A DNA stretch of 44,152 nt from Psammoneis japonica (taxonomy: Eukaryota): assembly GCA_008632985.1 (NCBI GenBank), contig QPGO01000224.1, forward strand, positions 62,001 through 106,152. The letters are read 5' to 3'. Both the position numbers and the translations under genes were made by a program. The notes beneath the pieces were generated by a model that saw only the letters and a list, made by a program, of their open reading frames with translations, was not told the origin of the DNA and did no database searches. Shown here piece after piece: positions 1 to 44,045 of the stretch. Position 1 is the stretch's first letter, and the number at the start of each line of letters is the position of its first letter.

Positions 1-1650
1 CTCTGGGTGCCCCTGGGAATGCAAAGCTTGCTCACCAGCTCCATGTGGGGGGGATCTGAAAGCTTCTCTCAATCCCAAGGGAAGAGATGCCACTTGCATG
101 ATGCCAGACACTCCACTCAACTCATGCCTTCAATGCATTGTGACTTGCATGTGAGTTTGCTGGATTGGGCTGATTTGTGTCAGGCAGGCATGTCTGAGGG
201 GCAACATCAAGTCAATGGCTGCACGCACCCCTGTGCTTCTGAGGTTTGTGCTGTTTCTTGCTGGAGATCACCATCATCTTCCACATTTGGGCAGGACCAA
301 TCATTGGGGCATGTGCCAAGGATGCAACCAGCCTTTGTCACCTGGAAATCTGTGTCCTTTGGAACTTCAATGCTGCTGTGGCTGAAATCACCTGCTGAGG
401 TGGCTGCCAAATGCACCCCATGCACGGCCCAAAATGATGAGTTGGCGGTGGCCAGATTTTCACCCCAGTGTCCACTTTGTCTGGTTTGTGACTTTGAGGC
501 TTTGCCTTGGACATGCTTGCTCATTCCAAGGTGACCAGCTGGGCCTCATCTGCTGCTGCTGTCCAAAAGCTCACACCACCTGCTGTTGGTGCTCCCAGGT
601 GCCACACCACCATGGCTTCACCAGGCACTGGAGCTGCCTCCACCAACTTTTTCTGTTGGCATGGGCAGGTGCTCACCCTCTTCATGAACAGGGCAGAGGA
701 ACGGGTGGGGTGGCCCCACCAGCATGAAAAATCAGGAAGCAAATTTGATGAACCATCTGGCATGGTCAGTGCTTGCAGCAACTTCACAGCTCTGAATGTC
801 ACGTGTGAGTGCAGTGTCAGCCTGCCACTGTCCACCTGCCATGCACTGCTGTTCTTGGGCAAGCAGTGCTGGGCCACACTGTGAACTGTCCATTGGCATG
901 TGGCCTCTTTGCTTGCTTCCCCAAGAAGATGCTTGCAGCTGAGTCCCAGGATGGCATGTCCCTCCACAAGAAGGCAGAGGGAGGGACAGGCCTTTCCAAT
1001 GGCAATGGGGGCGAAAGTGGTTCTTCTCACGCCATGTGACATTGACCCACTTCTTGTTGCCAAGATGATTGCTGCCTTTTGCCACTCCTGGCATGTTGTT
1101 CTGGGCAATCATGGCCACCTTTTGTTGCCAATCTCTGCTCCATTCTCTTGCATGTGGAAGACAACAGAGCCAGCTGCAACATTGTGCCAGCCACAGCAGG
1201 ACAAGGCACTCCCCATCAAGTTCATGCAATTCATTGACAAGAGCATCCAGTGTGCCGCCTCAAGGCCTGCACACAGAAAGTGATTGACAATGAGCTGAAT
1301 GACCATTTCTGTGCATGTCACAGTGCATTTGCCTCAGTTGCAGCAATGATCACATTCTCCAGATTGTCCAATCTTCCCCACAGCTTGGTTGACAAGCTCA
1401 ATTGCACTGGCACTGCCCATGCTGCACCGACAGACTCCAAGGCAAACCCACCTGCCAAGAAGCCCAAGACTTCCCCCCCCCACACACTGGCAGTCAAGAA
1501 TGACCAAGTGACTGAGGCATGGCAACTGCTGAGGGGTCATGAGTGGGCTCTGAAAAATCATGCGCCACATCTGTCACCAACTGCCCAATGCACTTTGGGG
1601 CAGTGGTTTGCATGAATTTGCACTTCACTGGTGCTTGCCATGCCAACTGC
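1..1650. repeat. Decayed CpG/TpA-depleted block, probably an old TE remnant (family not identifiable)
   Basis: CG and TA dinucleotides are nearly absent and TG/CA are in excess. Overlapping C/H/Q/W-rich ORFs in all frames mostly end in TGA. Composition switches to normal near 1650. Confidence 0.6.
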
Positions 1651-1885
1651 GAAAGAATCAGAAGGAACCGAAATGCAGAAGAATCAATCCAATGATAAGA
1701 ACAAATTCTTGCAAAATAGTGTAGCGAAATCATAACAAATATTTTCCGAGCTGTTGCGCCCATGCAGTCGGAAACTGAGCAAGCGGAGAAACAGATATAT
1801 TTCACAACAAGACCAAACAGCCAGAGGCACAAATAGCAAAATCTCTTTATAATAAAATGCAGATTATCAGTTTATCGGTCGCGGA

Positions 1886-2575
1886 CTATTTATATGTTGA
1901 AAACCCTTCACTTCTTTGATGCGCATAAACAATACATACCAAGCAAATCAAAACGGCCGCAACCACCGACGAGGGAGACAGGACTTGTTTCCTAAATCTA
2001 ACGCTGCCGCCTTCAAACACTTCACCCAAGGGAGTCTTGATCCCATCAATGGACCGCACATTCTTTTCCTTTTGATAGTCTAAAATTTCATCGCGACTCT
2101 TCCCCTCAGCCCAGCCCTTAAGCATGTTGCGATCTCCCTTGTAGTCCATGTAGGGCACAGCATATCCACACGATGTTTGTACTCGATCGACATGAAGAAT
2201 TATAATTTGCCGCGTTCCCGGCAACAGATTATCTTGAAAATGCATGCAAGCATCGTTCCATGCTTTGCTAACGTCGTTCCGCAACAGCACCTCTCCACGT
2301 CCATACAAGCGAAGAATTCTCGGACCACCCTCCATGCCACAAAACATGATGGTCAAGCGCCCATTTTCTGAGATGTGAGCAGACGTTTCGTTTCCAGATC
2401 CCGTCATATCTTGATATGCGACGGTATGGTCGTCAATAATACAAAAACTGGAATAGCCCTTGGGCGAGAGATTGACGTGGCCGTTTCTGCTGGATGGGGC
2501 GGAAGCGACAAAGAAAATGTGCTGTTGCGCAATCCATTCTTGGAGAGTAGGTGTAATGTTGGGATGGAGTTTCAT
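1886..2575 (-). CDS. Pyridoxamine 5'-phosphate oxidase-related FMN-binding protein (YLR456W/YPR172W-like) with a C-terminal hydrophobic tail
   Basis: Intact 229 aa ORF. Family motifs FFVASAP..GHVNLSPKG, DMTGSGNETSAH, GRLTIMFC..PRILRLYGRG, VQTSCGYAVP and N.RSIDG; C-terminal segment VVAAVLICLVCIVY. Confidence 0.9.
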   Translation of the reverse strand: MKLHPNITPTLQEWIAQQHIFFVASAPSSRNGHVNLSPKGYSSFCIIDDHTVAYQDMTGSGNETSAHISENGRLTIMFCGMEGGPRILRLYGRGEVLLRNDVSKAWNDACMHFQDNLLPGTRQIIILHVDRVQTSCGYAVPYMDYKGDRNMLKGWAEGKSRDEILDYQKEKNVRSIDGIKTPLGEVFEGGSVRFRKQVLSPSSVVAAVLICLVCIVYAHQRSEGFSTYK

Positions 2576-3758
2576 GGTGTTTCTTAGGGAGACCTTCAGC
2601 TAAAATACTATTCGACGACAATCTGGAGAGTGGAGAGATGAGAAACGTGAACCAACGCAAATGCGGATCTGAACAACATCTTGGACGCAAGAGGATCTTC
2701 CTTGTTCGTCAATGAAGTTCGAAGTTCGAAGTTCACGCGTTTGGTCAAAGGGTTGTTTGATGCAGTTCGTGACTGAGGTACCAGTGTGATACGGTAGTTG
2801 CTGACTCGTGACTGGGAAAAAGATACGCCCACGATACTGTAGCTCTGCAATTTTGGAATTTCAGCATCGATACCGGGCCAGTGCCGGTAGTCTCTACTCT
2901 AGGGCCCTATCCATAGGGCCCTAGGGCCCTACAGCACAGAACATGACGGCGCGACGCATAACGCATTGACTTTATTTGCCACTTTGCTGGGGGCATCTCT
3001 TTGAGAGACACTCTCTGTTTTGCTTCGACTCTCTAATGTAGAGGGTCGTGACAGAGGAGTTATCGTCGTGACGGACTTTGGTTGGTCGCGTGACGTGTGA
3101 ACTTCATGATGTTGGGGGTTGGGGGATGCGAACGCCGATGTCAACTAATCATCTCAATCGTGGATGGCAATGCCAATGTGTTTGAAACAATTATGGTACC
3201 TCCCAAGCCGGATGTACCGTACAATTATGGAGGACAGGCCGACGAGAACTTCTTGCTAAACATTTGGCGTGGTGTCAGAGACCGGCCACGAAATTGATAG
3301 GATCGCTCCAGCCCGTGAGCGTTAAGTAATCAATTGCGAAGCCCTCACTTATCGCATGTTATCTCCCACAAACCTTCCCAAAATTATTTTCAATTATGCA
3401 AAGGATGGGAAGCCGACATAACAACAATGTGAATACACGTCCCTCTTGTACGTGCGGAACGGTAATGCCTGTTCCAACAATTAGGAAGAGTACGAGAGAT
3501 TCCCGTTCTCATAAAAAAAAAAAGAAACAAGGTGAGTAGGTCGTGATGTTTTGCAAGAGCATGATGTGTTTCATCGACTCAATCCTCCTGCATGATCGTT
3601 GTTGCCACTAATGATATAGTAGAAAAGAGTAAACGAAAGACAATCAAGGTGAGACTTACCATAGGTTTATTGCGTTGTTGACTGGATTCCCTTGGAAGAG
3701 ATGAGAGAACTACATTTTCATTTTCCTTATATCTCACCTGATCATCTTTCTTTGTATC

Positions 3759-6512
3759 ATGATTGTCAAACAAAGAAACAGTACAATCTCAGCTGCCGAC
3801 AGGATGGGAAACGCTAGCGCTAGGTGCAAGCCCAACTTCACCCGCAGCGTCGACTCTTCTTGCAGAGCATGCGGCATCGACGTTTTGGATGGCGGACGTT
3901 TCGACCGTGTCGTTTGGAGGGATCCTTCACTAAGCTATTGCGCCAGACCGGGGAGCTACACTTACAAAGTGACGGTTGAGGACTGCGAGGTAGGCAGTTG
4001 TGACAGGGATACGTGTTCCACACGCGTGACCATTGTGGATACGAGGTCACCGGATATACGTTGTCCCTCCAATTACATCTTGGATGCGAATAGCTACTGC
4101 CAGGTTGATCCGAGAAACCTTCAAGTCACTTCCGTTGACAATTGTGATGGAACCAGAGATATTTCGAGTAGTGCGAGTACGCATAGACTAACTGGTGTCG
4201 GAGATCACAGAGTCACATTCCGTGCTTCCGATAGGTATGGCAATGGAAGTTCCAGGGAGTGCAGAGTAAGAGTTCGGGATAGGATGCGACCATCCATCAC
4301 CTGTTTCCCTCATAACTCCGTGTGGGTCGATGGTAAGTGCGAGTTCAATGCTCGTAGCTTTCCAGTCACGTCCAGTGACAACTGCGATGGAACCAGAGAT
4401 GTGTCCGGGTCCGCATCTCCGAGTGTGCTCCGTGGTCCAGGAAATTATGGGGTTCGTTACTATGCCTCGGACAGTTCCGGTAACTCCTATGGTAAGACCT
4501 GTTCTTTACATGTCAGCGACAGGTCGCCGCCAAACATTAAGTGTCCAACCGACTTCAACGTGGACGCAGACGAGAACTGCCAGGCGGACCCTCGAAGCCT
4601 TCAAGTCACTTCCACGGACAACTGTGATGGAACCAGAAACATTTCAAGAAATACAAATACGCATACCCTACATGGTGTGAAACTGCATCATGTCACATAT
4701 TCTGCAAGGGACGGAGCTGGCAACTCAAGATCAAGGTCTTGTCAGGTGCGCGTCGTCGATAACACAAAACCTATTATGAGCTGCCCCGTCATCTCCGTGT
4801 TGCAAGCGAACGAAAGCTGTGAGGCTGATCCAAGCGGTCTTAGGGGCGAGGCCACGGACAATTGCGATCCATATGTATATGCAAGAACTTCCGAGACCAT
4901 GTTACAAGGCATAGGATCGCACAATGTCACATTTTCTGCCACAGATAGATACTCTAATCGTGAGGAAACGGAATGTCCCATTGTGGTCGTAGATAGCGCA
5001 GAGCCGGTTATAGAATGCCCTGAAGCGGAGTTGCTTGCGAACGAAAGCTGCGAAGCCGACCCTCGAAGTCTAACAGGCGTGGCCACTGACAATTGTGATG
5101 CTGAGTTCGATGCAACGACTTCCGAGACTACGCTGAAGGGTGCAGGACCGCACAATGTCATCTTTTCGGCCACCGATGCCTCCTCTAATCGCGGGGAGAA
5201 GGAATGTTCCATTGCGGTCGTGGATAAAGCAAAGCCGAGTATAAGCTGCCCTTCCAGTGCCGAGTTGGAAGCGAACGAAATCTGTGAAGCCGACCCTCAG
5301 AGTCTCAAGGGCGTGGCAACAGACAATTGCGATGATGATTTCGATGCAACGACTTCGCAGACCAAGCTGATGGGTACAGGATCGCACAACGTTATGTTTT
5401 CGGCCACTGATGCCTCCTCCAATGTCGGGGAGAAGGAATGCTCTGTTCTGGTAGTGGATAGAACAACTCCGATGATAACCTGCCCTTCCAGTGCCGAGTT
5501 GATAGCAGACGAACACTGCAAGGTCGATCCCAGTAGCCTGAAGGGAGTGGCTCTGGACAACTGCGATCCTGATTTTGATGCAACGACTTCCGAAACTGAA
5601 TTGCAAGGCGCAGGATCTCACAACGTCCTGTTTTCTGCCACAGATGCGTCCTTCAATCGCGGTGAAAAGGTGTGTTCGATTGCGGTTGTGGATAAAGCAA
5701 AGCCGAGCATAAGCTGCCCTTCCAGTGCGGAGTTGACAGCAGACGAAAACTGTGAGGTCGATCCCAGCAGCCTCAAGGGCGTAGCGATGGACAACTGCGA
5801 TCCTAATTTCGATGCAACGACTTCCACGACCCAATTGCGCGGCGTAGGATCTCACAATGTCATGTTCTCTGCTACGGACAGCTCGTCCAATTCTGAACAG
5901 AAGGAATGCGCGGTAACTGTTGTGGATACGACCCCGCCGACCTTCGACGTCTGCCCAGGAAATCTTGAACTCGAAGCCGAAGCAGGCTGCGTGGCAGAGC
6001 TTCCCTTGGAATTCATGGCAAGTGCAAGTGACAACTGTGGAGGCACAGTGGTAGATTGGGTCGACGATAATGGAAATAAAGTCAGTGGTCGTTTACCTCT
6101 AGGTCAGCACTTCATCTCCTTCCGTGCTACCGACGTGAACGGGAATTGGGCCGACGGTTGCAGGTCCGTCGTGACGATTGAAGATCACGACGACGACGGT
6201 CTCTGTGGTGATGATGATCTCTGTCCTCATACGAAGGACGAGCCCGAGGTAGAACTCAAGCCAAATCACTGGAAGCTAACTAATCAGAAAGATGCAGATA
6301 GCTATCTCTTATATGAGGGATCCAAGCCCAAGAATCGTAGGTACACGACGAAAGATACGGGTGGGTGCTCCTGCTCCCAGATTATCGAGATCTGTGATTA
6401 CGGCAAGGGCATTAGCGAGTTTGGATGTCCCAACGGAGTGATGGATCTCTGGACCGGGCTCTATGACCACGCTGGTGAAGCGCCCTTTCGGTGTGAGGAG
6501 GATCTGAATTAG
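3759..6512 (+). CDS. Large HYR-repeat (Ig-like) extracellular protein with a TSP3-like Ca motif and a Cys-rich C-terminal domain; true 5' exon uncertain
   Basis: 917 aa ORF with about 9 tandem ~79 aa units (D..P.I.CP...DNCD...G.H.V.F.A.D..GN....C.V.V), then DHDDDGLCGDDDLCP and DTGGCSCSQII...FGC...MDLW. No signal peptide in the ORF. A possible acceptor (tctcag, ~3792) suggests an upstream exon. Confidence 0.85.
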   Translation: MIVKQRNSTISAADRMGNASARCKPNFTRSVDSSCRACGIDVLDGGRFDRVVWRDPSLSYCARPGSYTYKVTVEDCEVGSCDRDTCSTRVTIVDTRSPDIRCPSNYILDANSYCQVDPRNLQVTSVDNCDGTRDISSSASTHRLTGVGDHRVTFRASDRYGNGSSRECRVRVRDRMRPSITCFPHNSVWVDGKCEFNARSFPVTSSDNCDGTRDVSGSASPSVLRGPGNYGVRYYASDSSGNSYGKTCSLHVSDRSPPNIKCPTDFNVDADENCQADPRSLQVTSTDNCDGTRNISRNTNTHTLHGVKLHHVTYSARDGAGNSRSRSCQVRVVDNTKPIMSCPVISVLQANESCEADPSGLRGEATDNCDPYVYARTSETMLQGIGSHNVTFSATDRYSNREETECPIVVVDSAEPVIECPEAELLANESCEADPRSLTGVATDNCDAEFDATTSETTLKGAGPHNVIFSATDASSNRGEKECSIAVVDKAKPSISCPSSAELEANEICEADPQSLKGVATDNCDDDFDATTSQTKLMGTGSHNVMFSATDASSNVGEKECSVLVVDRTTPMITCPSSAELIADEHCKVDPSSLKGVALDNCDPDFDATTSETELQGAGSHNVLFSATDASFNRGEKVCSIAVVDKAKPSISCPSSAELTADENCEVDPSSLKGVAMDNCDPNFDATTSTTQLRGVGSHNVMFSATDSSSNSEQKECAVTVVDTTPPTFDVCPGNLELEAEAGCVAELPLEFMASASDNCGGTVVDWVDDNGNKVSGRLPLGQHFISFRATDVNGNWADGCRSVVTIEDHDDDGLCGDDDLCPHTKDEPEVELKPNHWKLTNQKDADSYLLYEGSKPKNRRYTTKDTGGCSCSQIIEICDYGKGISEFGCPNGVMDLWTGLYDHAGEAPFRCEEDLN

Positions 6513-7049
6513 AGGAGATGGCACGTACATTTAGCTTTGCATATTTATTTGGGCATGTTCATGCTTCACGTTGGATACTTGCAATTGGAAGTTTGGAGCG
6601 TGCTCCGCACCAGACATCATGTATATCTATGCCAAAGATTGATTCGCGGAAACGGAACTAGAGGCTGATCTCCTAGCGACAAGCACGTCGCTAAACTGAT
6701 CATATTACAGTTGCGGCAGAGCGATTCATTCTACTATATCATTCTATATGTTCTATAGCACTTTGTTTCACATTCTCTGGTAGGCTGTCGGAGCCCATCA
6801 GAGTCTTGTCGCTTGCAACTTCGTTCTAGACTGAGCCGTTCGTGACAATGTTCATGCCTGAATTGACTTTTGGATGCCTCCATTGCCGGTGAAGCTGCCA
6901 AAAATATGTCGATGGATAAAAAAGTGCGGCAATTTTCATATTCGTGGCCGAGCAAAAGGAAAAGGTAAAAAGGACAGGGGATTCGAACCATTGAGAACGC
7001 ACGCAAAATTAACCATGGAAGCAGGGAAAGAGATTCGTTATCTTCTTCA

Positions 7050-8528
7050 TTGAGGCAGTTGCTGCAGGCGCAAAGGGTGGGTGTGCATGGTGCAGCTGCA
7101 GGGTGACAATGTGACACTGAGTGTGGTGTTCCACCAAGCTGAGCACCCCACCAGCTTGGCTTTGAGCCAAGAGCCCTGGCCAGCAGCTGGCTCCACGTTT
7201 GCTCCTCTCCCAGTGTGGTTTGCCTGTCCAAGCTGTGCCATTGCATTTCCAGAGGGCCAGGGAGAAGAAAAAATTGCCAGCTTAACTGCTTGCTTCAGAC
7301 CCTGCATTGTGAGCACGCTCTTGAGAAAAAATGAGAGGTGCTGCAGTGATCTGTGCAGGGAGCAGCCATCATTGGCATGCTCAACAGATCTTGGACCCAG
7401 CTTCACTCTGAGCTTTTTACTTTTCAACCACACAATCAGGGCAAGATTTTTGGAAGTTTTCAGTGGCCCAGGGTGGCTGCACTTTTGAGAGGCCCTTGCC
7501 AATGGCTCTCAGCTGCTTGCAGATGTGCATGTGTTGGGCATGTCACTTGACACAACACTTGCAAGTGGTGTTGTGCCCTCACTCAAAACTGCAGTGCTTT
7601 TTCTAATGTGCCAGTGCCTTGGCTGGGCACATGGTGGGGAGCTCATGCTCTCTTGCAGCTGATGATCTGTCCTTCTTGACCCCCGCTCTTTTGACAGTCA
7701 ACCACAGGCCAGCATCATCCAACTGTGAGAAAGTGCCTTCAATGGGCTGTTGTTTGGGAGCATGCATTGTTGTCTGTGTGGAGCGCACATCTGTCATCCC
7801 AGCGAGAGCTGCAGCAAAGTGTGCACTCTCCCACACTTGTGCCAGGGGGCAGAGTGATGTGTCAACAAGTTGGCCCATGGTGTCAACAAGCAAGCTTGAG
7901 GAAGCTTGCTCCATTTTGCAGCGATGCAGCATTTTGGGTGCCAACAGGGGCTCACATGCCATCTCCAGCTTTGTCAGCCAGTTGCAAAGGGGGCTGCTGC
8001 CACGTGTGGGTTGGGGTGGTCCAGCAAGCTTGCACTCCATGCTGGTGGCACAAAGTGCTGCTGCCATGGCTGCATTGGCATTGATCTGCTGATGTGTCCA
8101 ACAAGGCTTTGGCAGCTTTGGCACAGCACCCTGCTGACAAGGCACTGGCAAGGATGGCATGACTCTTGTGGCTGGGCTGGCACTCTGGAGGGACTGGCAT
8201 GACCTGGGAAGCTGTGCAGGAAGGGCTCAACATTGCCACCACCAGCACCAGAAACAACTTGTTTTGTGGTGTGAAGAGCCCACCAGCACAACCCCAAGTT
8301 GGGTGTCTCAGGTGGCAGCTTGAAAGACAGTCTTTTGCTGCAGCCCAGTGTGTGGGTGGTGCTGTTGCCAAGAGCTGCTTTGCATGAGGGAAACAGACAG
8401 AAAATTTCTGCAGGAGCTGCTTTGTTGATGGTTGGAGCAGTCTGGACTTTGAACTTTGATGGAGAGGCAAGCACAGCAAGATTGGTGTGCCCCAGGCAGC
8501 GTTGATGCTTCTCCTGTCTTGATCTCTT
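7050..8528. repeat. Decayed CpG/TpA-depleted block (unidentified TE or gene remnant)
   Basis: Same dinucleotide depletion and spurious multi-frame ORFs as 1-1650. Confidence 0.55.
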
Positions 8529-8812
8529 GATGCAACAACTTCCAAGACTGCACAAAGGGTGCAGGACCACACAATGTCACCTTTTGGCCACCAATGCCTC
8601 CTCTGATTGTGGAGAGAAGAAGGAGGAGTGCTCCATTGTGGTGGCTGAAAAGGCAAAGGTCGAGCACAAGAAGCTGCTCTCCTGGTGGCAGTGCCAAGTT
8701 GGAGGAAGAGAACAAAACCTGCAAAAAGCCAACCCTCAGAGTCTAAAAGGTGTGGCAATGGACAAATTGCAATGGTGATTTTGATGCATCGACCTTGCAG
8801 GTCAAGTTGCTG
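8529..8812 (+). pseudogene. Mutated duplicate fragment of the HYR-repeat gene (matches ~5109-5370)
   Basis: Aligned by eye, e.g. gatgcaacgacttccgagactacg vs gatgcaacaacttccaagactgca, and gccgaccctcagagtct vs gccaaccctcagagtct. Contains indels. Confidence 0.9.
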
Positions 8813-8873
8813 AATTGGGAATTTGAAACTTGTGCGAGGATTTTTTTAATGACAGCTGACCTCGTCGTCTTTG

Positions 8874-18792: not shown

Positions 18793-18798
18793 TGAATC

Positions 18799-28307: not shown

Positions 28308-28330
28308 TGTGTGTGCATGTTCCATGGGTG

Positions 28331-31053: not shown

Positions 31054-31157
31054 TTGCGAAAAATGGACTTGACTGTTTTCTGATCAGGCGCATTTTTCTT
31101 CAATGCATTTGCAAAAATGTGCCTGACCCAACGACAGTCAAGTCCATTTTTGCACAA
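31054..31157. repeat. ~100-bp hairpin/palindrome
   Basis: aaaaatggacttgactgt (31059-31076) pairs with acagtcaagtccattttt (31134-31151). Inner arms tcaggcgcattttt / aaaaatgtgcctga. Confidence 0.85.
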
Positions 31158-33383
31158 ATTGTGTGAACATCACAGTTTCAACACAAAAACGTGTAGATTC
31201 CACAAGCGTCCACAATCCATTTCATGCTTTTTACATCACGGGTCATTTTCGAAAGATTCCTGTTGATGTCCCTTCCTGGTGCAAACCTGCACACATTCAC
31301 CACGCACCTAGATTTAGCAACACATTCTACGTGCAGATTGAAATCTTGCGCTTCTCCCTTCGCGACACTCATGATGCTTTTGGGCCAGGTTCTTTCGCAC
31401 GGCCAGTGTGATTTTTGAAAAAAAAACTCACGACCTGCAATTTTTCCGGCACTTGCTCAATTTCTCGCAACATGCACACTGCCATCCGTCACAGCTTGTG
31501 ACCACAAACTTGGTGCTCCCTTCATCAATTCCTTGGTCCTGCCACAAAGAAGCCCAGGACCACGGATTTCTCGACATGCTGGTCTGTCGGTCTGTCTGTC
31601 TGTCTGTCAGTCAATGGTGAAGTCTGACCTTCATCCGAGGGGGTCAGGCCGGATTTTCAGCATGATGTGTCACAGAGGGCACATGTTAAAAAGTGCATGT
31701 CAACATGAGCAGACTGCAGAAGATTGGGGTCTGTGGCAGTGGAAGGGATGCAGGTCAAGAGGAGTGTGTGGCGGTGGGAGAGCGCGCGCGCCAGCCATGA
31801 GATGGGGAAAAGTCAAAAGATGGGCCCAGGGTGTGGACAGATGCTGGATGGGAGGGGGGGGGGGGGGGGCATTGCAGACAGTTGGGTGTTGTGGGAGGAG
31901 GGTCTGGTGTGTGGGCTGGTGTGCAGAAAAGTGGTTGGAGAGGGCAAAGCCAAAATTGAGGCTGAGGATCTGAGAGATCCAAAGTTGGGGAGCAGCGGTG
32001 TTCCAAGACTGAGTTGTCATTTGTTTTTTCTGCTAAATCTGGGCACAATGCAAGACAATGCACATCATTTGGCAGCAGCTGTGTGGCTCATGACACAACT
32101 GGTGCTGACGCAGGTTGCACGGGGAAGGATGTGGTGCCAGACAATGTGCGTTGCTTGGCACCATCAGAGGTGGGAACAACTTGGGGGGTGATTCATTTTC
32201 CACGCAGGTGTCACCTTTTTGGTGGCAGGGCCACATTCCTCCTGTGCCACCCCACCCCTGGGAACACATGTTCTCACTGCCTGTTTTCTGTTGCTGTCCT
32301 TTGCTGCTGTCAGTTTGTTTGTGCTCTCCTGTTCCATGTGGCTGGCTCCAATTTTTCAGTTTTTGCTCAAGCAATTTTGCCATTGCCTGAACTTCCTTGC
32401 ACCACAATGTCATGTTGTCGATGTTTTTGCTGTGGTCTGTTTGTGGGTGCATGCTGGAGGCATTGGCACCCTCTTTCTTGTCGATGAATTCCCAGAACTT
32501 CCTGGACCAAATTTCATCGCGCTGGCTTTGGTGTCCTTGCTGCTGGATCTCATCTCATGTGCTTTTTTTCCCAATTCTTGGCATCTTTCTAGTCTGCACT
32601 TGTTCCAACCATGGTTTCTTCTCACCTGTTTTCCTTTCCCTGTGCTGCACTCAGCTTTGGGAATGTGCCCTGCTTGCTTGTTGGTCCTGTTTCAGCTCTT
32701 CTTTGGTTTTCCCATGTGCACATGCTTCCACTTGCCCCCCACTTGTTTTTTCCAGGACCAACAGACTGAATGCCTCATTGCTCACTGATGCCAGTTTGTT
32801 CAAGCAACATCGCAATTTGAACCAAAATGCTTCCACATGGTCTTCCCGACCACGATTTTGGCAGAAAGTGACAAGTGCAGCATGAGTGTGATTGCATGTT
32901 GTCCCTTCCTTTAAGCACGTCCAGTGGCAACATTGACCTGGAAGGTGAAAAAAAGAAAGCTTTAAAAAGCTGTCACACAAAGCAAGCTGCTGCAGCAGCA
33001 ATGGAAGAAGGACCTCTTCCTCTCATGCTGCCCATCTTCAAATGTGATTTGGTTGACAGACGATAAGCCCCAAGTGACCATGAACTCTCTGCCTCTTGTT
33101 TGCACTCTCTTTCTGATGATTTCTGTGTGTCTTTGCTTGAACAAAGTACAGCAGCAAATGGGGAAAGTCTGCAGTAGACTAGACTTCAAATAATTATGTT
33201 CACGCCCGGCGGAAATCCGGCAAGGCTTTGGTCCTACTCCGTGGGTGGGATTCAGGCTTGATTGGGGATTGCAGCAAACGGGATTCTACCATGCTTGCTT
33301 GCGTTACAAGCGCCCTTTAAATTAAGCTTGTGCAAACTAGAGATGCCATAAATCGTGTTTTAAAAATATAAAGTTTGTGCGAA

Positions 33384-35916: not shown

Positions 35917-36847
35917 AACCGCCTTATACGATTTCGAGAACGACAAACGAGATAGTAGGGCTAGACTTACTCTACTGTAGCGACCGTGTGTCACCACATT
36001 GCCGGCGCGCTACCGTTGAGATAACGGTCGATATGAAATTGTTAGTGATGAATATGTTTTCATAGATGAATTTATGTACAGTCCTGAGAATCGTGATGGC
36101 GAGCTGCCGTTCTCGGCTCGGGTTTATCCTTTATCTGTGAGTCCAGTTGAACGGGATTTCGCTGGACACAAGGTTATCTGAAAAATCGGACATTTTCCTG
36201 ACAGAATTCAGTCTGACTTCACCACTGAAGTGCCACAATGAAAAAAATTGCAGAATTGCGGTTTTAACTTTTTCCGCACCCGCGGGACATGATTTTTTGT
36301 CCCGGTATTTTCTTAATTCAATTCAAGTGTGATTGTTGTTTCATTGTTGTTTATGTGTTTAATCACATGTTTCCTGATGTCATGTCATTTGAATGGAAAA
36401 TGTTGCCTTTGCTCTTTGTCAGTGACTTCAGAAGAATGACTCGGCTCAACACATTTCGACCCACAGACATTTGGTTTTTAGACACTCATGAAGCAGGGTG
36501 CACAGCCGTGCTGACAAAACCCATGCATGATGCAAAACTTTGAATGGGACCGAAGATTTCGGAAATTGTCGCCAAAAGTCACTCTTCCATGGTGTCCACA
36601 TGCGTCCCCAGCATGTGTGCATCTGCCCATCACTTTTTTGCACCCCATTGCCCCAGTCCATTCAGGTGTGTCATCCGGTTTTGTGTGTGGCACGGATCTC
36701 TTCGCAGTTGTCCAAACCGCAGGTCCAAAGTCTGTCCTGGGGCTTGCAGTGCCGTTGGACAGAACTGTCACGGTCAAAACAGCACACATTCACTTGCATT
36801 TGTTTGAACAGAAAAGTTTTGTCATTTGTGTTGGCACTCCTCACAAT

Positions 36848-37245
36848 TGACTTGTTCCAGCTCTGGGTGGGACCTCGCACTAGTGAACTGTGACATGATT
36901 GTTTTTTGTCATCCGTCGCATGTTTCGCACGTGCATTTCTACGTGTTCTGTTGTAAAAAATTGTTCCACACTGCCTGTTTTGCGAAGCCAAAGGCTTTCT
37001 GTCATCTGCGCTCATGTCAACAAAAATGCGCTGGGTGTGTTCTTTGATGTCTAAAGAACACACCCGGGCATGCTGCAATGAATGTGCTTCAAGTGTGAAG
37101 GAGGAGATGCGTTCGCAAAATTGCCTCTTTTTCTGTTGGCGATCATTCATGTGTCCATTGCTCAACAATTTTACTGCGGAGCTCGCACATGGAATTCTGC
37201 AGGCCCAATGTCACAAAAAGTCCCACCTGGGACTGGAACCCGTCA
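36848..37245 (-). mobile_element. Eroded, inverted second copy of the 27913-28307 MITE
   Basis: Both ends align over about 80-100 bp to the 27913-28307 element. TIRs tgacttgttccagctctgggtgggac / gtcccacctgggactggaacccgtca. Confidence 0.8.
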
Positions 37246-38207
37246 ATTGAAAAATTTTGTTTAAATGCAGCAATCACGCGAAACCACGTGGGTGCGGAAA
37301 AAGCCAAAACACTGTCAAACAGCTCAGCAACACTGATGGAATTAGCCGATGCATTTCCAGGAATCCGATCACAACAAATTGACGGACTTGTGACAAGGAG
37401 AACTCGTGTGAAAAATGCTGAAAAATTGGGGCTGAATTCAGTCCTTGCCATTTGACTTTGTTTGGCTGTCATTGCAGCAGCCCACATGGAAATCTTGACA
37501 TCTGCGCACACCTTGAGAGCAAGCACAACAGATGTGCACTTTCCTTGTGCCATTGAATTGAGACATGTCACGGTGCGGTGGGCACGAATCGACAGCATCG
37601 TCGTGCCCGTTCAAGTGCTGAGGCTCGCACAGCTCAGCAGCCGGAAAGTGGGCACAGCGTCATGTCCGTTCATGAGATTTGTGCACATTTAAAAAGTCTG
37701 GACATCTTTTTGGACTCCCTCCTCCCACCAAGGATGTCCCACACACAACCACTTTTTCCCCGTCACCGAGGGGGGCGCCGCGCCTGCCTCTCCTGTTTCT
37801 TTCTCCACAAGCGCTGGTTGCTCCCTCCCACTTTGGCACTCAAAACTCACTTTTGCCATCTTTGCTGCTTGACCCTTCAACCACCGGACTTGAGCAAATC
37901 TCCACGGGTGGAGACTTGCTCCCTTGCATCGCAAATGCAGCAAACGAAGTGACTTCAGACATGTGCGACATTTCATTCGCACGATTTTGTTTTGGAGCGC
38001 GCATTCGCCAAAAATCTGGGGGAGCCCTTTTGCAATTTAGAAAGTTCAATGCTGACTTTTAACACTGGGTTTTTTGCAAGCTTCATCTGTGGACAGAGAG
38101 GGGCCAAATCTCAACCTTCAACAATGGAGGTTGTCATGAATTGCTGTCGCAAATGGAGCAATGGCACCACACCCTTGGAGCAAATGCACGTGGCACACTT
38201 TACACAG

Positions 38208-38844
38208 ATTCTGCATGACATGACATTTTTGTGCTGTGTCAGTTGCTCCATTGTGAAAGTGCATGACACGTTACAAATCCTCAAGTGGAGCAAATCTCCA
38301 CGCATGGAGATTTGCTCCCCTGGTGGTTGAAGGGTTGAAAAAAAAGAGGGAAACAGTCTGTGGGATTTTTTGTTCACAGCAATGAGAGACAAGAGAGATC
38401 TTTGCTTTGTGAGAGCCAGAGAACGCGGCAACAAGCTGGCTCTCAACCGACGCAAAAAATGGGAGTTTTCAACCAACAACCCAGTGACTCAACTGCCATT
38501 TTTTAGCTCAGCCAATGCTGAACTGCCAATGTTGAGCACATTCTGCATGACATGACATTTTTGTGCTGTGTCAATTGCTCCATTGTGAAAGTGCACGACA
38601 CGTCACAAATCCTCAAGTGGAGCAAATCTCCGCCCATGGAGATTTGCTCCCCTGGCGGTTGAAGGGTTAAAAAAAGAGGGAAACAGTCTGTGGGATTTTT
38701 TGTTCACAGCAATGAGAGACAAGAGAGATCATTGCTTTGTGAGAGCCAGAGAACGCGGCAACAAGCTGGCTCTCAACCGACGCAAAAAATGGGAGTTTTC
38801 AACCAACAACTCAATGGCTCTCAACTGCCATTTTTTAGCTCAGC
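38208..38844 (+). repeat. Tandem duplication of ~305 bp (period ~332), each copy carrying a strong hairpin
   Basis: 38208-38512 and 38540-38844 are near identical. Hairpin ggagcaaatctcca-cgca-tggagatttgctcc at 38287-38318, with a variant at 38619-38650. Confidence 0.92.
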
Positions 38845-41063
38845 TCATCCTCTGGGCAGCAGCTTGCTTCTTTGGTTTCACAGAAGTGCACAGAGGTTTC
38901 AATGCTTGTGAGAGCAGGCCAACGCCACCATCTCCTGTTGGTCTCCACAGGTCAGGAGATCTGTCAGCAGTCTGGGTCACAGCAACATGGAAATCTCACC
39001 TGCAATGCCAGCTTTGTTGCACTCTCGTTGCATGTGCATTGCAACAAACCAGAGCAGAGTTGGACCTGTGTCTCTTCCTGAAATTCTGTTGATGGTGCAA
39101 AGTGTTTCTTTCAAAATCACTGTTGGCACTTGCCAAATGTGCAATGTTTCTGGTGGAAGGCCATGCAGGGTCTTCTTTTGTTGTCTGGAAAGCAAGCAAA
39201 GAAAGTGAAGAGCATGCATGAAGTTCTCATGGAACTGTGCTCAACTCCGCTGGTGCCACCACTGGCTGGAGCAGAGATGCCAAGCCATGCTGCTGGAAAC
39301 TGTCCCCATTCTAAAAGCAGCGGAAAGTTGTGCTCATTCTAAAAGCATCGCAAATTGTTTGCAAGTGGCCCCAACACATCATCGCACAATGTTGTGCATC
39401 ATGCATCATCCAACTCTGCTCCTGCAAGAAACAGATGAACCCACTTTTCATGTTGTGCCAATGGGAGCATCTGCCCACTTGAGTTTGCTGCTGCTGCCAC
39501 CCAAGTCCAAATCACATGGGCAGAACCCATCCAAACAACCACCGGTTTGCTCATTGGTGGTTGGCAAGTTCTGAATTTCTGCAACACCACTGTCTCAGCT
39601 GGGAAGAACTTGTTGCAATGGCAATCATCTGGGAGACCGTGCTCAACACAAATGTCAAAGTGTGCTTCGGTGCCCATGAATTCAGTCATGCATGAACAAG
39701 GGATTTTGTGGATTCCAGATCCCTGTTTGGACAGGGACAGAGTGGCACCATTGTTGGTGTGTCCAAAGTGGCCACTCTGAATGCAGGCACATTCTGTTCC
39801 AAAACCTTCCCACAATGTGCAATCCCACAAGGCTCCATCTGGGCATTGCATGTGTGCACAGAAGCCTGGTCTGCACAGATGAAGATCACATCTCCTTCAC
39901 CATCACAATGCATGCACATGGCCACATCATTTGCAATGTCACCATTGGCAACAAGGAGGAGCCCACAGTCTTGGGAACATCCCTTGTTGGCACACTTGTT
40001 GGTCACAAGGCCAAGACCATCCATGGTTGGTGCCCATCTGCTGACACCAATGATGATCATGCCTGCCAAATCATCCACGCCACTCACATTGGGCTGTCCA
40101 TCCTCATCCAACAAGGTCAAGAGACCCGCTGCTTTGTCATTGTCAAGAATGGCATTGGAGAAGTCTGCCCCAGTTCTTTGCAGACACCTTTGGTGTGCAT
40201 GTGCATCATGCAGCCATCTGGCTCACTGCTCACCATGGCTGCTCCCAGGGATCCTCCCCCTTTGGAGCTCCAACAATTTGCCCACCGCTGATCCACCACC
40301 ACTGTCTCTAGATCAGCACAGCCCCCTGTGTCAAGAGCACAGTCATGCCATCTGTGAAATCTTTGCCAAAGCCAGCCAACTCACCATTGGTGGTCTGAAA
40401 CGTGCAGGGAGGACAATTGACATCTTGTTCAAGCTTGACAGTCATCAGTCATCCCTTTGACTCCCACGGCAGCCTGTGACAAAGCTGTGGAGAATTTGAG
40501 TTGCACCATTGTTTCTTGGATGAGAGTTGACAGTCTTTGTTTCAATGCACTGCTTTGGGAATTGTGACACAAAAGATCATGAGCAAAGGATCATCCAGTG
40601 GGAAAGGGGGTGATTTGTGAACCCTGTGCACATGTTGCCTGACACAACAAAGAACAAGAGGCTGCTCTGTCCAATGCACTCTCCATCATTGTAATGTGAC
40701 AGAGGAATCTCAGTGGAGGAAGGAAATTGTGGTGAGCTTTGGCTTTGCAAACCATGGTTGTCTTCCGATGTCGCAAAGAACAACAGACCAGTTTTTCTGT
40801 GAACATTGTGTCATCATGCTGTGTTGTGTGCCACTTGTAAAATTTGGAGAGCTGGCAATTTTAACCACAAAAATGGCACAAAAGCAAATGTGCATCAACA
40901 TCGCATGCACATTCCATGCATGTGCACTTGCACAAGCCAGACAAATGGCTGCACAGATTTCTTTCCATTCAGAAGGTGCAGATTTCATGCAGCCCTGAAA
41001 ACATGGGCAGGGCCTGCAGATTTTAAAATGGGTGCAGATTTTCTGTGATGACACGGAAGCACA

Positions 41064-41447
41064 GGGAAAATCAAGCAGACCCACATGGACAATCAAACAC
41101 CCCAGTGGTGTCACCCCCATTGAACAAGGTGAAACCCCCATTTCCATGCGGACACACCTGCATAGAAACAGCAGGCATGACCCATGTGGAAAATGCAAAA
41201 CCCCGCCAAATTGTTCACGCTGACACACACTCCAGCCCCAGGTGGGGATTGTTGCAACATCGCACCGCAGAATCCCACGTGGCACATCAGAGGGGGGGGC
41301 AATTTGGTGTGTGGTCCTGCATTTTCCATGCAGGTCTCACCTGCTGTTTCCATGCATCTGTCCACATGGAAATGTGGGTTTTGCCTCATTTGACATGCCG
41401 CTGGTGGGGTGTTTGATCATCCATTTGGGTCTGCTCAAAATTTTCTC
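41064..41447. repeat. ~380-bp imperfect foldback (arms ~150 bp)
   Basis: agcagacccacatggacaatcaaacacccca pairs with tggggtgtttgatcatccatttgggtctgct; gaaacagcagg..tggaaaatgca..ccaaattg pairs with caatttgg..tgcattttcca..cctgctgtttc. Confidence 0.8.
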
Positions 41448-44045
41448 ATTGCTCCCGCCACTGTTTTTGGTGGCAGGGCCACATTCCTCCGGCCCCTCGG
41501 TGGCTTTGGTGGCAACCAGCATTTCCCAAATCTGGTTCATCATTGTGCAAGATGTCTTCTGTCATTGATGCCCAAAAGATGAAATCATTTTGCCTGCCCA
41601 CCAACCCTCAGGAAGGTGCCGATGGGAAAACCAAACAAGAAGATGAAAGGACAAGGCCAAATGAGACAACAAGAACACCAACAGGAAGGCTGCTCCTTCC
41701 ACATTCCACACTCCTTTCTGGGTTGCTCTGGCCGTGTTGTGCACATTGGCTGGCTTGATCTCCCGAGACCAGAAAGAGAACATTTTTGAGCTTTGTGTCT
41801 GGGGTGGGGCATTTTGCCGGATGGAGCAGGGCAGAAGCATCACACCCAACACCTCGGCCTCTGCATGACACATCAAACACAAGTGCAAAGGCACATCTCA
41901 GAAACAAGCCAACAGAGAAGAGTGAGGTTGACAAAGAACAAAAAAACCAAACCTGACTGCAAATGCTGTTGCACCTTTGCCCAGGAAAACCGGCTCCAGC
42001 TGACACCCACACTTCCAGTGCACCCCACAAGGGATGTGAAAGAAGCTCATGCAATTGGCCAGACATGGCAAGGTCAACAAAGAACAGAACAAAACAACCA
42101 ACTCTCACACCACGCTTGCCCTCATCACAAAAGATGCCTTGTGCTCCCTTGCCATTGGTGCAACTGCCACAGATTTTCCAAATCTGACAGTGAGATTGAA
42201 GCTTCCCAACAATGATGAATTCCACAACAAGAAGCTCTGTGCCATCCAAGTCCTCTCCAAATTCTGCTCAAATCTGCTCCTGATGTTGGGTGGCTAAAAT
42301 GGTGTCTGTGACTGCATTGCATTCACAATGGGTTCTTTCTCCTTCTGTGCCTTCATCACAATTGGCATTTGGCTCCATCTTGCACCTTGATTCTTCCTCT
42401 TGTTCATGAAAAAGACAAAGCAAGACATTGTTCCATGCCTTTTTGGCAATCTCTTGTGCTGTCCTCTCCTCTGTCACTCCCTCAGGCAATGCAACAAAGT
42501 CAGCAAACAACCATGATCCTCGTGTGCAACTGCAATGCTCTTGAGGAAAGAGAGTCCCAGAACAAGTGCAATGTGTGGAACCTGCATGATGTCTCCTGCT
42601 TTGTTTCCTCTTGCATTGTTCTTGGCTCTGGCTTTGTTGTGAGCTGTTGGTTTGTTTGTTGTTCATTTTTGGTGGCACCCACTCTGCAGGCAGATGCTGC
42701 GGGGCCCTCTGGCAGCAGAGAATGGAGAGTCAGCCTGCAGAGTGATGCACACACATCCCACTGATCCAGAGGAACTGACGCTGCTGTGCAGCTGAGATTT
42801 TCACACTGCGCAAATGTGCAAACTGTGTGTTTGTTCTGTCACAGATGCTTTGCTAAAACCTTGGTTCTGTTTCCAAAAATTCAATGAATCCATTGCTGCA
42901 AATGTTGGTCAATCAAAATTGGGCGCATTCACAATGGGGCATGTGCAAGTCAGCGGAGCTTTCCTGCAGAATTGCCATGGATGGTCGGCCCAGGTCAGTT
43001 TTGTGTTTTGTGAACTGGGTTTGCAAAAAAAAAACAGGAGTTGCTTTTGCTTTGTCATGGTCAACAAAGCTCTTTTGTGTTGGACAGAGAAATTAAAACC
43101 AGAGATGGTTTTGCTTGCTTTTGCTTTTCCGCAATGAAAAAATCTGTCTCGCTGCACAAATTGCAGAGAGGTGCACAAAAAAAGTCAAGTGCCAGCATTT
43201 TTCCCTGCACACTCTTGACGGCAATGTCCGCATGACTGGAAAGATGTCATTCTGTTGCAGTGTGAGCAACCTCACAAGCTGTCAAATGACATGTTGCGCC
43301 ATCTGGCAATGCCGGTCATGCACGTGCCTTCCAAGTGTCGCACATCACACTGAATCATGCCCCGGCACTTTGAAAATCTCAACCAGCAGCAACCAGGCAG
43401 CCAGCAATGATGAGAAATTGCACTCTAGCATCAGGAATCACACCTGGCAGCTGCGCATGATTCCATGACAATTTTGCACTTAGACACCCGGTGCCTGGTG
43501 CCATGTGAGATTCCCCACATCTGGAAACTCACATCACAACCCAGTGCATGATTTCGTGATTTTTCTGTGGCTCTGAACTGGGTGCTGGATCATGATTTCC
43601 AAGTCATGATTCCTGCCCAGCAGTGGAAAACGCACTCTGATTCCTGTGCAGGCTCTACACAGTGGAGGACAGTTGTGACTTTTTTGTCGCACACTTTTGG
43701 GGGGTTCCCCTGCAAAACAAATGACTGACCTGTGCCAGGGAGATTTCAAGCAGGGCCAAAATGCTGACTGGGGCTGTGCATGCCATGAGTGCTGCTGCCT
43801 TGCATGCAGCAAAGAAGTTTGGTGACCACATGCTCATGATCATGCAGAAACAAAGAGAGTGCATTGTCACAACATGTGCCATGGAAACACCCTCTTCCCA
43901 GGCAGAGTGCAACAAGCAGCATCTTCTTGCAGACTTGCAAAAGTTGGAGTTGATGGTGTTGTGGACGGCCAACACTAGTGCATAGAGCCAACTCTATGGA
44001 AAAAGGCTTTTGTACTACCATACAGTTTTATCCATGTTCTTGTCT

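Follow-up and report, generated by a model that had tools for sequence, protein, structure and literature searches.

What has removed both CG and TA from much of this diatom locus? The window analysed here, a 44,152-nt stretch of the Psammoneis japonica genome, has whole-window observed/expected (o/e) ratios of 0.59 for CG, 0.31 for TA, 1.50 for TG and 1.51 for CA. The favoured explanation, to which a probability of roughly 0.6 is given, is that two in-situ transition processes act on silent non-genic nuclear DNA: a TpA-targeted one, enzymatic adenine deamination, comes first and CpG decay follows. The scope of the pattern is this one 44-kb window.

Composition and block structure

The YR steps of the window were segmented with a three-state HMM. 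In state E both CG and TA are lost, in state T TA is lost and CG is partly kept, and state N is normal. State E covers 16,305 nt (36.9% of the window), state T 8,342 nt (18.9%) and state N, which contains the genes, 19,470 nt (44.1%). The first-pass annotation held that more than half of the window lacks both dinucleotides; the figure for both is 37%, and it is TA alone that is missing from more than half (56%). Blocks are HMM calls.

4..1649: E block, 10 CG and 0 TA in 1646 nt
1650..7040: normal block (contrast), PNPOx-like and HYR-domain genes
7048..8834: E block, 11 CG and 4 TA, contains the eroded HYR-gene repeat copy
8529..8812, plus strand: eroded copy of the HYR-gene repeat at 5109-5372, 75% identical (per-site changes, tblastn)
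13086..13513: T block, TA gone and some CG retained, within a repeat of about 10x unit depth
13519..16603: E block, contains a 715-nt CG/TA-free stretch
16829..18808, minus strand: T block, frameshifted DDE_3-like transposase family copy (family matches 16876-18795)
18810..24656: normal block, silicon transporter (20226-21649, minus strand) and MFS gene
24658..25431: T block adjoining the next E block
25433..27914: E block, 13 CG and 7 TA
27912..28313, plus strand: MITE-like element with terminal inverted repeats, TA and CG still normal
28306..28864: T block
28866..29607: E block
29609..31790: T block, 181-nt tandem repeat 29551-30225, 3.7 copies
31792..33173: E block
36364..38782: T block, carries a 332-nt tandem and the other MITE-like copy, which is eroded
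36842-37246, minus strand: this second, eroded MITE-like element
38783..43963: longest E block, 56 CG and 15 TA in 5181 nt

The silicon transporter marks the window as diatom DNA. Pooled eroded blocks (16.1 kb) have o/e ratios of 0.14 for CG, 0.05 for TA and 1.84 for both TG and CA; the values in normal blocks (20.1 kb) are 0.96, 0.55, 1.21 and 1.20, respectively. The longest run without any CG or TA is 715 nt (15657-16372), which has a probability of about 3e-29 at normal CG+TA density. The double erosion of CG and TA is confirmed as real. Borders are sharp, as had been claimed: the state switches within a few YR steps, near gene ends. For example, the first E block stops at 1649, with the end of the PNPOx ORF at 1886; a T block opens at 13086, close to the radical-SAM start codon at 13018. 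The T block at 24658..25431 holds an ORF (24603-25124, minus strand) with weak Tectonin similarity. The normal island at 27916-28304 is the MITE-like element, surrounded by eroded DNA and read as a young insertion.

TAA and TAG together number 4.8 per kb in E and 35.9 per kb in N. They vanish and no new stops arise, which leads to long false ORFs; ORFs of at least 100 aa number 3.99 per kb in E, 4.08 in T and 2.26 in N, and the loss of stops was thus correctly described at the outset. In none of the 95 ORFs scanned in the window was a transposon domain found. Viral genes were not found in the window. Because the origin of most E blocks is unrecognisable, how much TA and CG they once contained is inferred rather than seen.

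Contigs from the public run X1 (word depth ~57) match the eroded sequence. A 6571-nt contig spans 1-6368 with 4 differing letters, the E block at 4..1649 is covered by a single contig continuing into genes, and further contigs span 7085-9260 and 15687-16875. The platform of X1 is not on record, and X1 may be the sample behind the window assembly. That circumstance and the unknown platform of the window itself are what favours an artefact of sequencing or assembly on modified DNA. This reading is largely refuted: X1 contigs pass from eroded blocks into normal genes, a normal MITE-like island lies within eroded DNA, copies differ also by indels and transversions, and the same replacement of Tyr by His or Cys is found in metagenome assemblies. 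X1 depth is about single-copy in the eroded blocks at 1-1650, 7050-8800 and 15687-16675. Between 12.7 and 15.3 kb, and again between 16.7 and 18.7 kb, it is 5-10x unit; 13.1-15.4 kb is multi-copy.

Direction and sequence context of the change

Three polarised comparisons in the window (a gene fragment, the MITE-like pair and the DDE_3-like transposase) bear out the direction first noted, TA>TG/CA plus CG>TG/CA. Between the HYR gene, which is spared, and its eroded fragment copy, 16/40 sites of the CG class and 4/12 of the TA class have changed; reverse changes are absent (TG>TA 0/34, CA>CG 0/35). Other A>G changes are GA>GG at 4/43 and AA>AG at 6/32; the latter is fairly high beside TA>TG at 4/12 and, in one pair with small numbers, counts against the favoured explanation. 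Where the 28k MITE-like copy has ten TA, the eroded copy has TA at two, CA at seven and TG at one, and nine of 15 CG are kept. TA was thus lost at 8/10 sites and CG was lost by transition at 3/15 (p=0.005). Of ten conserved Tyr the transposase copy retains two (five are now His, one is Cys and two are something else), whereas 29 other rows of the comparison retain 278/329 (p=2e-5). At conserved Arg it keeps 9/13, similar to the other rows. Polarised TA changes in the window are lopsided on the minus strand, with 12 CA against 2 TG (p=0.013), which sits uneasily with full strand symmetry.

Repeats within the window indicate when the changes arose. CA/TG exchanges make up 10/21 double-adjacent differences in the paralog pair at 13.3k/15.3k, and 17/23 in the 181-nt tandem repeat (67 mismatches). 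In the tandem repeat, eight columns mix CA with TG while CG and TA are absent from every copy; the expectation for fully lost CG columns is about 0.3. The dominance of CA/TG double differences between paralogs, together with the mixed columns, indicates change in situ, after duplication.

Among transposase family proteins from metagenome assemblies, 4/178 have under 2% Tyr, nearly all Tyr codons having become His or Cys. These Tyr-poor proteins may derive from the window's own species. The first-pass annotation would have taken a lack of TA>TG/CA enrichment over other A>G contexts as refuting its reading; enrichment was found when nonsynonymous transitions were counted against the DNA of intact relatives. 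In Tyr-poor members the TA class changed at 66/276 sites (24%) and other A>G contexts at 60/1547 (3.9%; p=1e-24); in control members the values are 30/545 and 147/2804. On the coding strand of Tyr-poor members, A>G (36/144) and T>C (30/132) are balanced. The order of TG and CA is random by a runs test (z -1.2 to +1.9), which found no strand-coherent runs. The change is specific to TA, equal on both strands and unclustered. TA before a pyrimidine (TAY) appears to be preferred; this may partly stem from Tyr codons being better conserved in the reference.

Pol eta-type synthesis at WA motifs, one of the mechanisms first suggested, is disfavoured, since AA shows no depletion (o/e 1.24) and AA>AG is at background level in Tyr-poor members (25/550). 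These AA sites are included in the 3.9% given above for the pooled non-TA contexts.

Fungal RIP changes C to T mostly at CpA and creates TpA. A RIP-type process, in which repeats are sensed by homology and mutated in bursts, would suit the multi-copy depth of several eroded parts, and diatoms have DNMT4, of unknown function, which is related to fungal RID according to the accessible part of PMC9998398. In the window, however, TpA is destroyed, eroded blocks also occur at about single-copy depth, and the HYR gene copy is spared; the target in Bigelowiella natans is also single copy, as far as the available text of a 2026 preprint goes (bioRxiv 10.64898/2026.01.13.699255). Equal strands and the absence of clustering are likewise unlike fungal RIP. 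A RIP-type process is highly improbable, and the description of the erosion as repeat-restricted and RIP-like is not supported.

TA loss precedes CpG loss

Bins with TA o/e below 0.2 and CG o/e above 0.5 number 11/88; none of the 88 has CG below 0.3 with TA above 0.3. The DDE_3-like copy at 16829..18808 has TA o/e 0.16 and CG o/e 0.69. In related transposon loci of other diatoms TA o/e is 0.44-0.80 in 48/48 and CG o/e is 0.03-1.10. TA depletion is thus seen in 0/48, though several lack CG; three (L022, L023 and L044) have CG o/e 0.03 and TA o/e 0.45-0.56, which is CpG-only erosion. TA loss is therefore not a trait of the transposon family. The metagenome protein P0011 keeps 1/22 Tyr shared by its nearest relatives (His 9, Cys 11), with Arg kept at 23/27, Trp at 12/12 and Phe at 22/24; Tyr was lost at 21/22 positions and 77/477 other columns changed. 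Its CG-class changes are 0/60. P0025 keeps 7/21 Tyr, and the controls P0193 and P0192 keep 20/24 and 32/35. CG-class changes in Tyr-poor members (6/217) are not raised.

TA loss is a process separate from CpG loss, faster and earlier; the claim that something beyond 5-methylcytosine deamination removes TA stands. Its derivation from repair of T:G mismatches is disfavoured, as TA loss comes before CpG loss and also occurs without it. A single deaminase acting on A in TpA and C in CpG, with 5-methylcytosine uninvolved, is very doubtful. Both changes would be amino-to-keto deaminations, and ADAT2 enzymes editing A and C in DNA are cited in the available text of the B. natans preprint, but TA is lost without raised CpG changes in P0011 and in T blocks alike, and CpG-only erosion occurs in other diatoms.

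TpA changes could also accumulate slowly beside CpG decay as a passive by-product of heterochromatin, through error-prone copying or repair of silent, late-replicating or methylated DNA with errors at TpA and no dedicated editor. Strand-symmetric, unclustered, site-by-site changes and borders that coincide with gene-free territory agree with this. It is nevertheless rather unlikely: TA loss is near saturation in P0011 where other divergence is modest, it precedes CpG loss, it is absent from the 48 other-diatom loci, which do show CpG decay, and the Pol eta WA pattern does not fit. The B. natans process is, moreover, episodic among lines in the available preprint text.

Proposed mechanism and known systems

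Under the favoured explanation, the targets would be the DDE_3-like transposon copy, the MITE-like copy, a displaced piece of a gene close by and older relics beyond recognition, all apparently silent; silencing is probably the targeting cue. A fast process would turn TpA into TG or CA site by site (A>G, or T>C on the opposite strand), and a slower one, ordinary CpG decay, would turn CG into TG or CA. A new insertion would pass from normal through the T state to the E state, ending with neither CG nor TA, TG and CA at about twice expectation, and Tyr codons replaced by His or Cys. CpG loss would come from deamination of 5-methylcytosine, on literature grounds; diatom CpG methylation is DNMT5-dependent in the accessible part of PMC9998398.

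The most likely agent of the TpA step would be a TadA/ADAT2-type deaminase acting on the adenine of 5'-TA-3' in marked chromatin, and a TA-preferring adenine deaminase, already proposed, is still the leading candidate. The first interpretation is partly supported overall. TA is palindromic, so that deamination of its adenine (A>G) leaves the same trace as T>C at a thymine lesion. A TET/JBP-type or other oxidase could modify T in 5'-TA-3' of silenced DNA, for example to 5hmU or 5fU, and mispairing of the modified base with G would give T>C, seen as A>G on the opposite strand; this fits the sequence data equally and is compatible with the apparent RTA (=TAY) preference. Dinoflagellate 5hmU favours TpA. 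Among the matches listed, however, literature on 5-hydroxymethyluracil and diatoms consists of dinoflagellate papers only, and the thymine route is unlikely.

The closest known system is that of B. natans, where, according to the available text of the preprint, silent viruses integrated in the genome undergo hypermutation at TpA only, and a DNA adenine deaminase resembling ADAT2 is the proposed agent (bioRxiv 10.64898/2026.01.13.699255). In mutation-accumulation lines, A>G/T>C changes made up 230/231 mutations; all of these fell on TpA, within integrated viral regions that are silent and single-copy, at ~1000x the background rate; TpA-poor CDS were enriched in DDE endonuclease and RT domains. 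The lack of a described mechanism in diatoms, as first stated, needs qualification: this precedent exists, and the available text mentions neither diatoms nor CpG. In both systems the TpA process consists of TpA>TpG/CpA transitions only, on both strands, TpA is depleted over the long term with CpA+TpG excess in clusters, and silent foreign DNA is hit while host genes are spared; the clearest target in the window is likewise a DDE_3-like transposase. The host here belongs to the diatoms (stramenopiles), whereas B. natans is a chlorarachniophyte (Rhizaria), and the targets seen comprise a transposon, one copy of a MITE-like element, part of a gene and relics of unrecognised kind, with viral genes not found. 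TA o/e is 0.05, near saturation, against 0.45 in the NCLDV region there, with CpG erosion superimposed and a possible TAY preference.

Other systems match in part. CpG decay of methylated transposons gives CG>TG/CA in non-genic DNA, and CpG-only erosion is seen in the same family elsewhere; it cannot remove TA, explains half of the pattern, and CpG loss lags here. Fungal RIP is also in-situ transition mutagenesis that cripples mobile DNA and leaves genes intact, but it is duplication-triggered and strand-coherent; here single-copy DNA is affected. ADAR, ADAT and TadA produce inosine from A, read as G, and U/T 5' of the edited A is preferred (tRNA U33-A34; ADAR neighbour), which matches TpA, as cited in the available preprint text. 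Known natural substrates of these enzymes are RNA, or C in DNA for AID/APOBEC, and APOBEC/ADAR hypermutation is strand-coordinated, unlike the equal effect on both strands here. The window is a new, near-saturated diatom case of TpA hypermutation, overlaid by CpG decay.

Block structure and gene content of the window

The deficit of CG and TA is confined mostly to blocks. Observed/expected ratios (o/e) for the whole window are 0.59 for CG, 0.31 for TA and 1.5 for TG and CA. Normal blocks (20.1 kb) have ratios of 0.96 for CG, 0.55 for TA and 1.2 for TG/CA; in the pooled eroded blocks (16.1 kb) CG falls to 0.14 and TA to 0.05, and TG and CA both stand at 1.84. If every CG and TA had been converted, TG/CA would gain about as much as is observed. 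Segmentation with a three-state HMM on YR steps places 36.9% of the window in state E (CG and TA both lost), 18.9% in state T (TA lost, CG partly kept) and 44.1% in state N (normal); switches between states take a few YR steps and lie near gene ends. TpA depletion and CpA/TpG excess are clustered (TA o/e 0.05 in E and 0.13 in T; TG/CA 1.84 in E and 1.5-1.7 in T). The longest run without CG or TA is 715 nt, which has a probability of about 3e-29 at normal density. The block ratios, the segmentation and this run show that the double erosion of CG and TA described in a first-pass annotation of the sequence is real. Its claim that the loss of TAA/TAG produces long false ORFs is also borne out: TAA plus TAG drop from 35.9 per kb in normal DNA to 4.8 per kb in eroded DNA, and ORFs of at least 100 aa increase from 2.26 to about 4 per kb. 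GC-biased gene conversion is rejected as a source of the pattern, given the loss of CG and the lack of any depletion of AA/TT.

A silicon transporter gene with two exons (20226-21649, minus strand) lies near PNPOx-like, HYR-domain, radical-SAM and MFS genes identified with Pfam. Its best relatives are diatom or metagenome proteins with at most 62% identity; the window can thus be regarded as nuclear DNA of a diatom to which no annotated species of the protein collection is closely related. The PNPOx, HYR, radical SAM, SIT and MFS genes have normal composition; erosion affects a DDE_3-like copy, a MITE-like copy and a stray fragment of HYR. Pfam searches with 95 stop-to-stop ORFs of the eroded blocks gave no transposon or viral domain. 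Matches below the cut-off include CxC6/KDZ (E 0.0067), HMUD2 (E 0.052) and other weak ones; all are best read as chance matches of Cys-rich false ORFs. Nine window gene products compared with the E and T blocks by tblastn returned nothing beyond the known HYR fragment, and tRNA and Rfam searches of the window found no tRNA gene and no Rfam match.

Several smaller features were observed. The ORF at 24603-25124 (minus strand) has a sub-threshold match to the Tectonin domain (E 5.6e-6; 26.4 bits, cut-off 30). It sits on an N/T border with a TA o/e of about 0.19, and may be a gene in decay on its way into the eroded territory. A normal island of 219 nt (16608-16826; 9 CG, 9 TA) has an E block on one side and a transposase copy on the other. 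Within an E block, 15559-15576 is a stretch of 18 C, after which comes a run of A; in read placement 15547-15588 was passed over as a repeat where reads seem to be cut. In the public sequencing run X2, one contig skips 12109-12233 in the region of the radical-SAM gene, and contigs have poly-A-like loose ends; X2 thus resembles RNA, and the skipped stretch an intron. No X2 contig lies over the eroded blocks of 1-20000, and a further run, X3, placed no contigs at all; no run is on record as RNA, and the lack of X2 cover is not evidence of silence.

Direction, order and context of the changes

Part of the HYR gene (5109-5372) is duplicated at 8529-8812, within an E block, with 75% identity. From gene to copy there are 16/40 CG-class and 4/12 TA-class transitions; the former count and the CG o/e of 0.14 in E blocks document CG>TG/CA in affected DNA. 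Other transitions are AA>AG 6/32, GA>GG 4/43, AG>AA 2/34 and GG>GA 4/31, and none is seen at TG>TA (0/34) or CA>CG (0/35). A further 17 changes are transversions, and six have a changed neighbour. The HYR gene copy is spared, though its fragment copy is eroded.

The second pair consists of copies of a MITE-like element that is about 400 nt long and has inverted repeats of about 70 nt at its termini; the ends are conserved in both copies and the interior has diverged.

27912-28313: MITE-like copy 1, of normal composition, an island inside eroded DNA
36842-37246, minus strand: MITE-like copy 2, in a T block

Ten TA of copy 1 are aligned; in copy 2 these are TA at 2, CA at 7 and TG at 1, so that 8/10 are lost. 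Of 15 CG in copy 1, nine are kept in copy 2, with TG/CA at three. TA loss exceeds CG loss (p=0.005). In the reverse direction, 1/3 TA of copy 2 is CA in copy 1. Natively TA-poor foreign DNA is rejected as an explanation, as the host-derived HYR and MITE-like copies were converted in place.

Further copies differ in the way that separate resolution of an ancestral CG or TA in each copy would produce. CA<->TG accounts for 17/23 double-adjacent differences in a 181-nt tandem and for 10/21 in the 13.3k/15.3k paralog pair. Ten columns of the tandem still have CG, in 24/40 cells, from which about 0.3 fully lost CG columns would be expected; in eight columns, CA and TG are both present and neither CG nor TA survives. 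Given this excess, most of the eight were probably TA originally.

Loss of TA is separate from loss of CpG, and faster. Among 88 bins of 500 nt, TA o/e is below 0.2 with CG o/e above 0.5 in 11, both are low in 27, and CG is below 0.3 with TA above 0.3 in none. States are also nested: a normal MITE-like island lies in E/T DNA, T-state elements are present at 5-10 times unit depth, and there are E-state relics. The nested elements read as a time series. In the first-pass annotation, one candidate for the loss of TA was a by-product of T:G mismatch repair. This is disfavoured because TA is lost before CpG and also without CpG loss.

Both products arise, with TG and CA at about the same level in each block. 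They are also randomly intermixed in every block (runs z from -1.2 to +1.9), and the process therefore does not act in strand-coherent bursts. However, TA changes that can be polarised within the window, on the minus strand (16829-18808 and 36842-37246), comprise 12 TA>CA and 2 TA>TG (p=0.013), in contrast to the symmetric metagenome proteins and bulk TG/CA counts.

The TA which remain in E blocks are mostly TAR (R, purine) on both strands: 32/48, against 118/764 in normal DNA. Surviving sites are mostly in CTAA/TTAG, TTAA and CTAG. They point either to a preference of the mutator for TAY (Y, pyrimidine) or to TA re-created from the abundant TG/CA.

Tyrosine loss in members of a probable transposase family

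16876-18795, minus strand: transposase copy in three frame pieces, in a T block, with an ORF at 17428-18792

The ORF belongs to a multi-copy diatom family (69 matches, many in Fragilaria crotonensis). A search with P0011, a member of this family, gave 269 matches, again with many copies in F. crotonensis; the family proteins are about 1000-1070 aa long and have no Pfam match. Look-alikes found with a language model carry PF13358 DDE_3 and HTH_33, which is a lead, and one family member has a weak HTH_Tnp_Tc3 match. The family members are probably DDE transposases of an unclassified kind. A PDB profile search gave nothing significant (best E 0.65), and the family profile found no second copy in the six-frame translated window.

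The window copy keeps 2/10 conserved Tyr (His 5, Cys 1, other 2), whereas 278/329 are kept in 29 other family rows, P0011 left out (p=2e-5). Conserved Arg is kept at 9/13 in the window copy, as in the other rows. The family itself is not TA-poor: TA o/e is 0.44-0.80 in 48/48 related metagenome loci and 0.16 in the window copy. The CG o/e of the 48 loci ranges from 0.03 to 1.10 with TA kept, so CpG-only erosion is common in other diatoms. Three family copies from other diatoms (L022, L023 and L044) have a CG o/e of 0.03 with a normal TA o/e of 0.45-0.56; they represent a natural control for CpG-only erosion.

Outside the window, four of 178 family proteins (P0011, P0025, P0066 and P0063) have less than 2% Tyr with raised His+Cys. 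In columns where its closest intact relatives P0190 and P0191 agree, P0011 keeps 1/22 Tyr (His 9, Cys 11, Asp 1), with Tyr>His/Cys at 20/22, while Arg is kept at 23/27, Trp at 12/12, Phe at 22/24 and Lys at 35/41. P0025 keeps 7/21 Tyr (His 8, Cys 5); the controls P0193 and P0192 keep 20/24 and 32/35. Selection against UpA in RNA is rejected, as it could not account for the replacement of conserved Tyr in copies that are dead. The Tyr-poor proteins are encoded by none of the 48 loci for which DNA was fetched; their organisms could be the same species as that of the window.

Context rates were taken from nonsynonymous transitions, with the DNA of intact relatives as the codon reference. In Tyr-poor members, transitions in TA context are 66/276 against 60/1547 in other A>G contexts (p=1e-24); in Tyr-normal controls the counts are 30/545 against 147/2804. 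Changes in CG context are 6/217 in Tyr-poor members. A>G (36/144) and T>C (30/132) on the coding strand are equal. A>G/T>C transitions are thus concentrated on TpA, which is an enrichment and not exclusivity. This comparison had been named as a test that could refute a second mutator; it does not refute it, and a second, TA-specific mutator is real. Polymerase eta-type mutagenesis, which had been put forward as its source, would produce A>G at both TA and AA. It is disfavoured, as AA o/e is 1.24 in E blocks and AA-class changes in Tyr-poor members (25/550) are at background. Codons changed are TAC 31/93 and TAT 28/91 against TAA 4/41 and TAG 3/51, which suggests a preference for TAY (=RTA), confounded by creation of new TA and by conservation of Tyr codons. 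TA loss in the Tyr-poor proteins is near saturation at modest other divergence, a relative bound on rate only.

Contigs of the sequencing run X1 (word depth about 57) match the eroded sequence. One of 6571 nt spans 1-6368 with 4 letters different, and therefore passes from an E block into normal genes; others span 7085-9260 and 15687-16875. They exclude an assembly artefact but not every artefact of chemistry, and X1 may be the source sample, its platform not being on record. Among the 40 of 201 differences between X1 and the window that were listed, there is no usable context signal. A base-calling artefact tied to a domain would not leave the MITE-like element as an island, 389 nt long and normal in composition, with eroded DNA around it, and the Tyr loss in metagenome assemblies gives independent support against artefact.

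Proposed processes and known systems

The pattern most likely reflects two processes acting in situ on non-genic DNA: a fast one targeted at TpA, and a slower CpG decay. CpG methylation of transposons is known in other diatoms, and on this published basis the decay is attributed to deamination of 5mC (PMC9998398). For the TpA process we infer an enzyme and a targeting cue.

The window is filed as a further case of the very recently described TpA hypermutation, now in a diatom. A wider reading is tentative, with a probability of roughly 0.3: diatoms, or at least one lineage of them, may have a dedicated DNA-editing defence in which the adenine of TpA is deaminated where DNA is silenced. This defence and the process in Bigelowiella natans would then be homologous, which would make it an ancient counterpart, across SAR, of RIP in fungi and of APOBEC/ADAR defences in animals. 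If true, this defence erases every Tyr codon of a transposase without making one stop codon. A 2026 preprint on a chlorarachniophyte is so far the single report of TpA-only hypermutation; titles and abstracts of the open-access literature searched gave no description of TpA erosion in diatoms. A diatom signature, near saturation over more than half of a 44-kb window and also in metagenome-derived transposase genes, would show that it is no oddity of one species, and would add a force of genome defence or mutation to a major group of primary producers in the ocean. The order of loss, TA first and CG later, can be used to date insertions. Annotators should note that TpA-eroded DNA gives long false ORFs and Tyr-free 'proteins'. 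In public data the mark is present in only 4/178 family members. A comparison of lineages that have it with those that lack it could therefore lead to the enzyme, which is possibly a natural editor of adenine in DNA.

Fungal RIP is a C>T change at CpA that creates TpA; it depends on duplication, affects both copies and occurs in strand-coherent runs. The window had been described as RIP-like and repeat-restricted; the process is not RIP-like, and restriction to repeats is not supported. TpA is removed and not created, erosion extends to blocks at about single-copy depth, the HYR gene copy is spared, and strand-coherent runs are absent (z from -1.2 to +1.9).

The first-pass annotation knew of no described mechanism in diatoms; the precedent is the B. 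natans preprint (bioRxiv 10.64898/2026.01.13.699255). In mutation-accumulation lines, the mutation rate of two integrated viral regions is about 1000 times that of the remaining genome; A>G/T>C makes up 230/231 mutations, all on TpA, and these occur in only 11/15 lines. The silent NCLDV region is present as a single copy. There are 124 clusters of TpA-poor, CpA+TpG-rich windows, and domains of DDE endonucleases and RT are over-represented among TpA-poor CDS. The preprint makes no mention of diatoms, stramenopiles or CpG. Its authors propose an ADAT2-like DNA adenine deaminase; for a TadA/ADAT2-type deaminase acting on DNA, the sole agreement with the window is the preference for a 5'-T. B. natans and the window share A>G/T>C on TpA, both products, the targeting of mobile or foreign non-genic DNA with genes spared, and TpA-poor clusters. 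They differ in that the host here is a diatom and the loss is nearer saturation; the affected DNA is a transposon, a MITE-like copy and a gene fragment, and CpG decay is superimposed.
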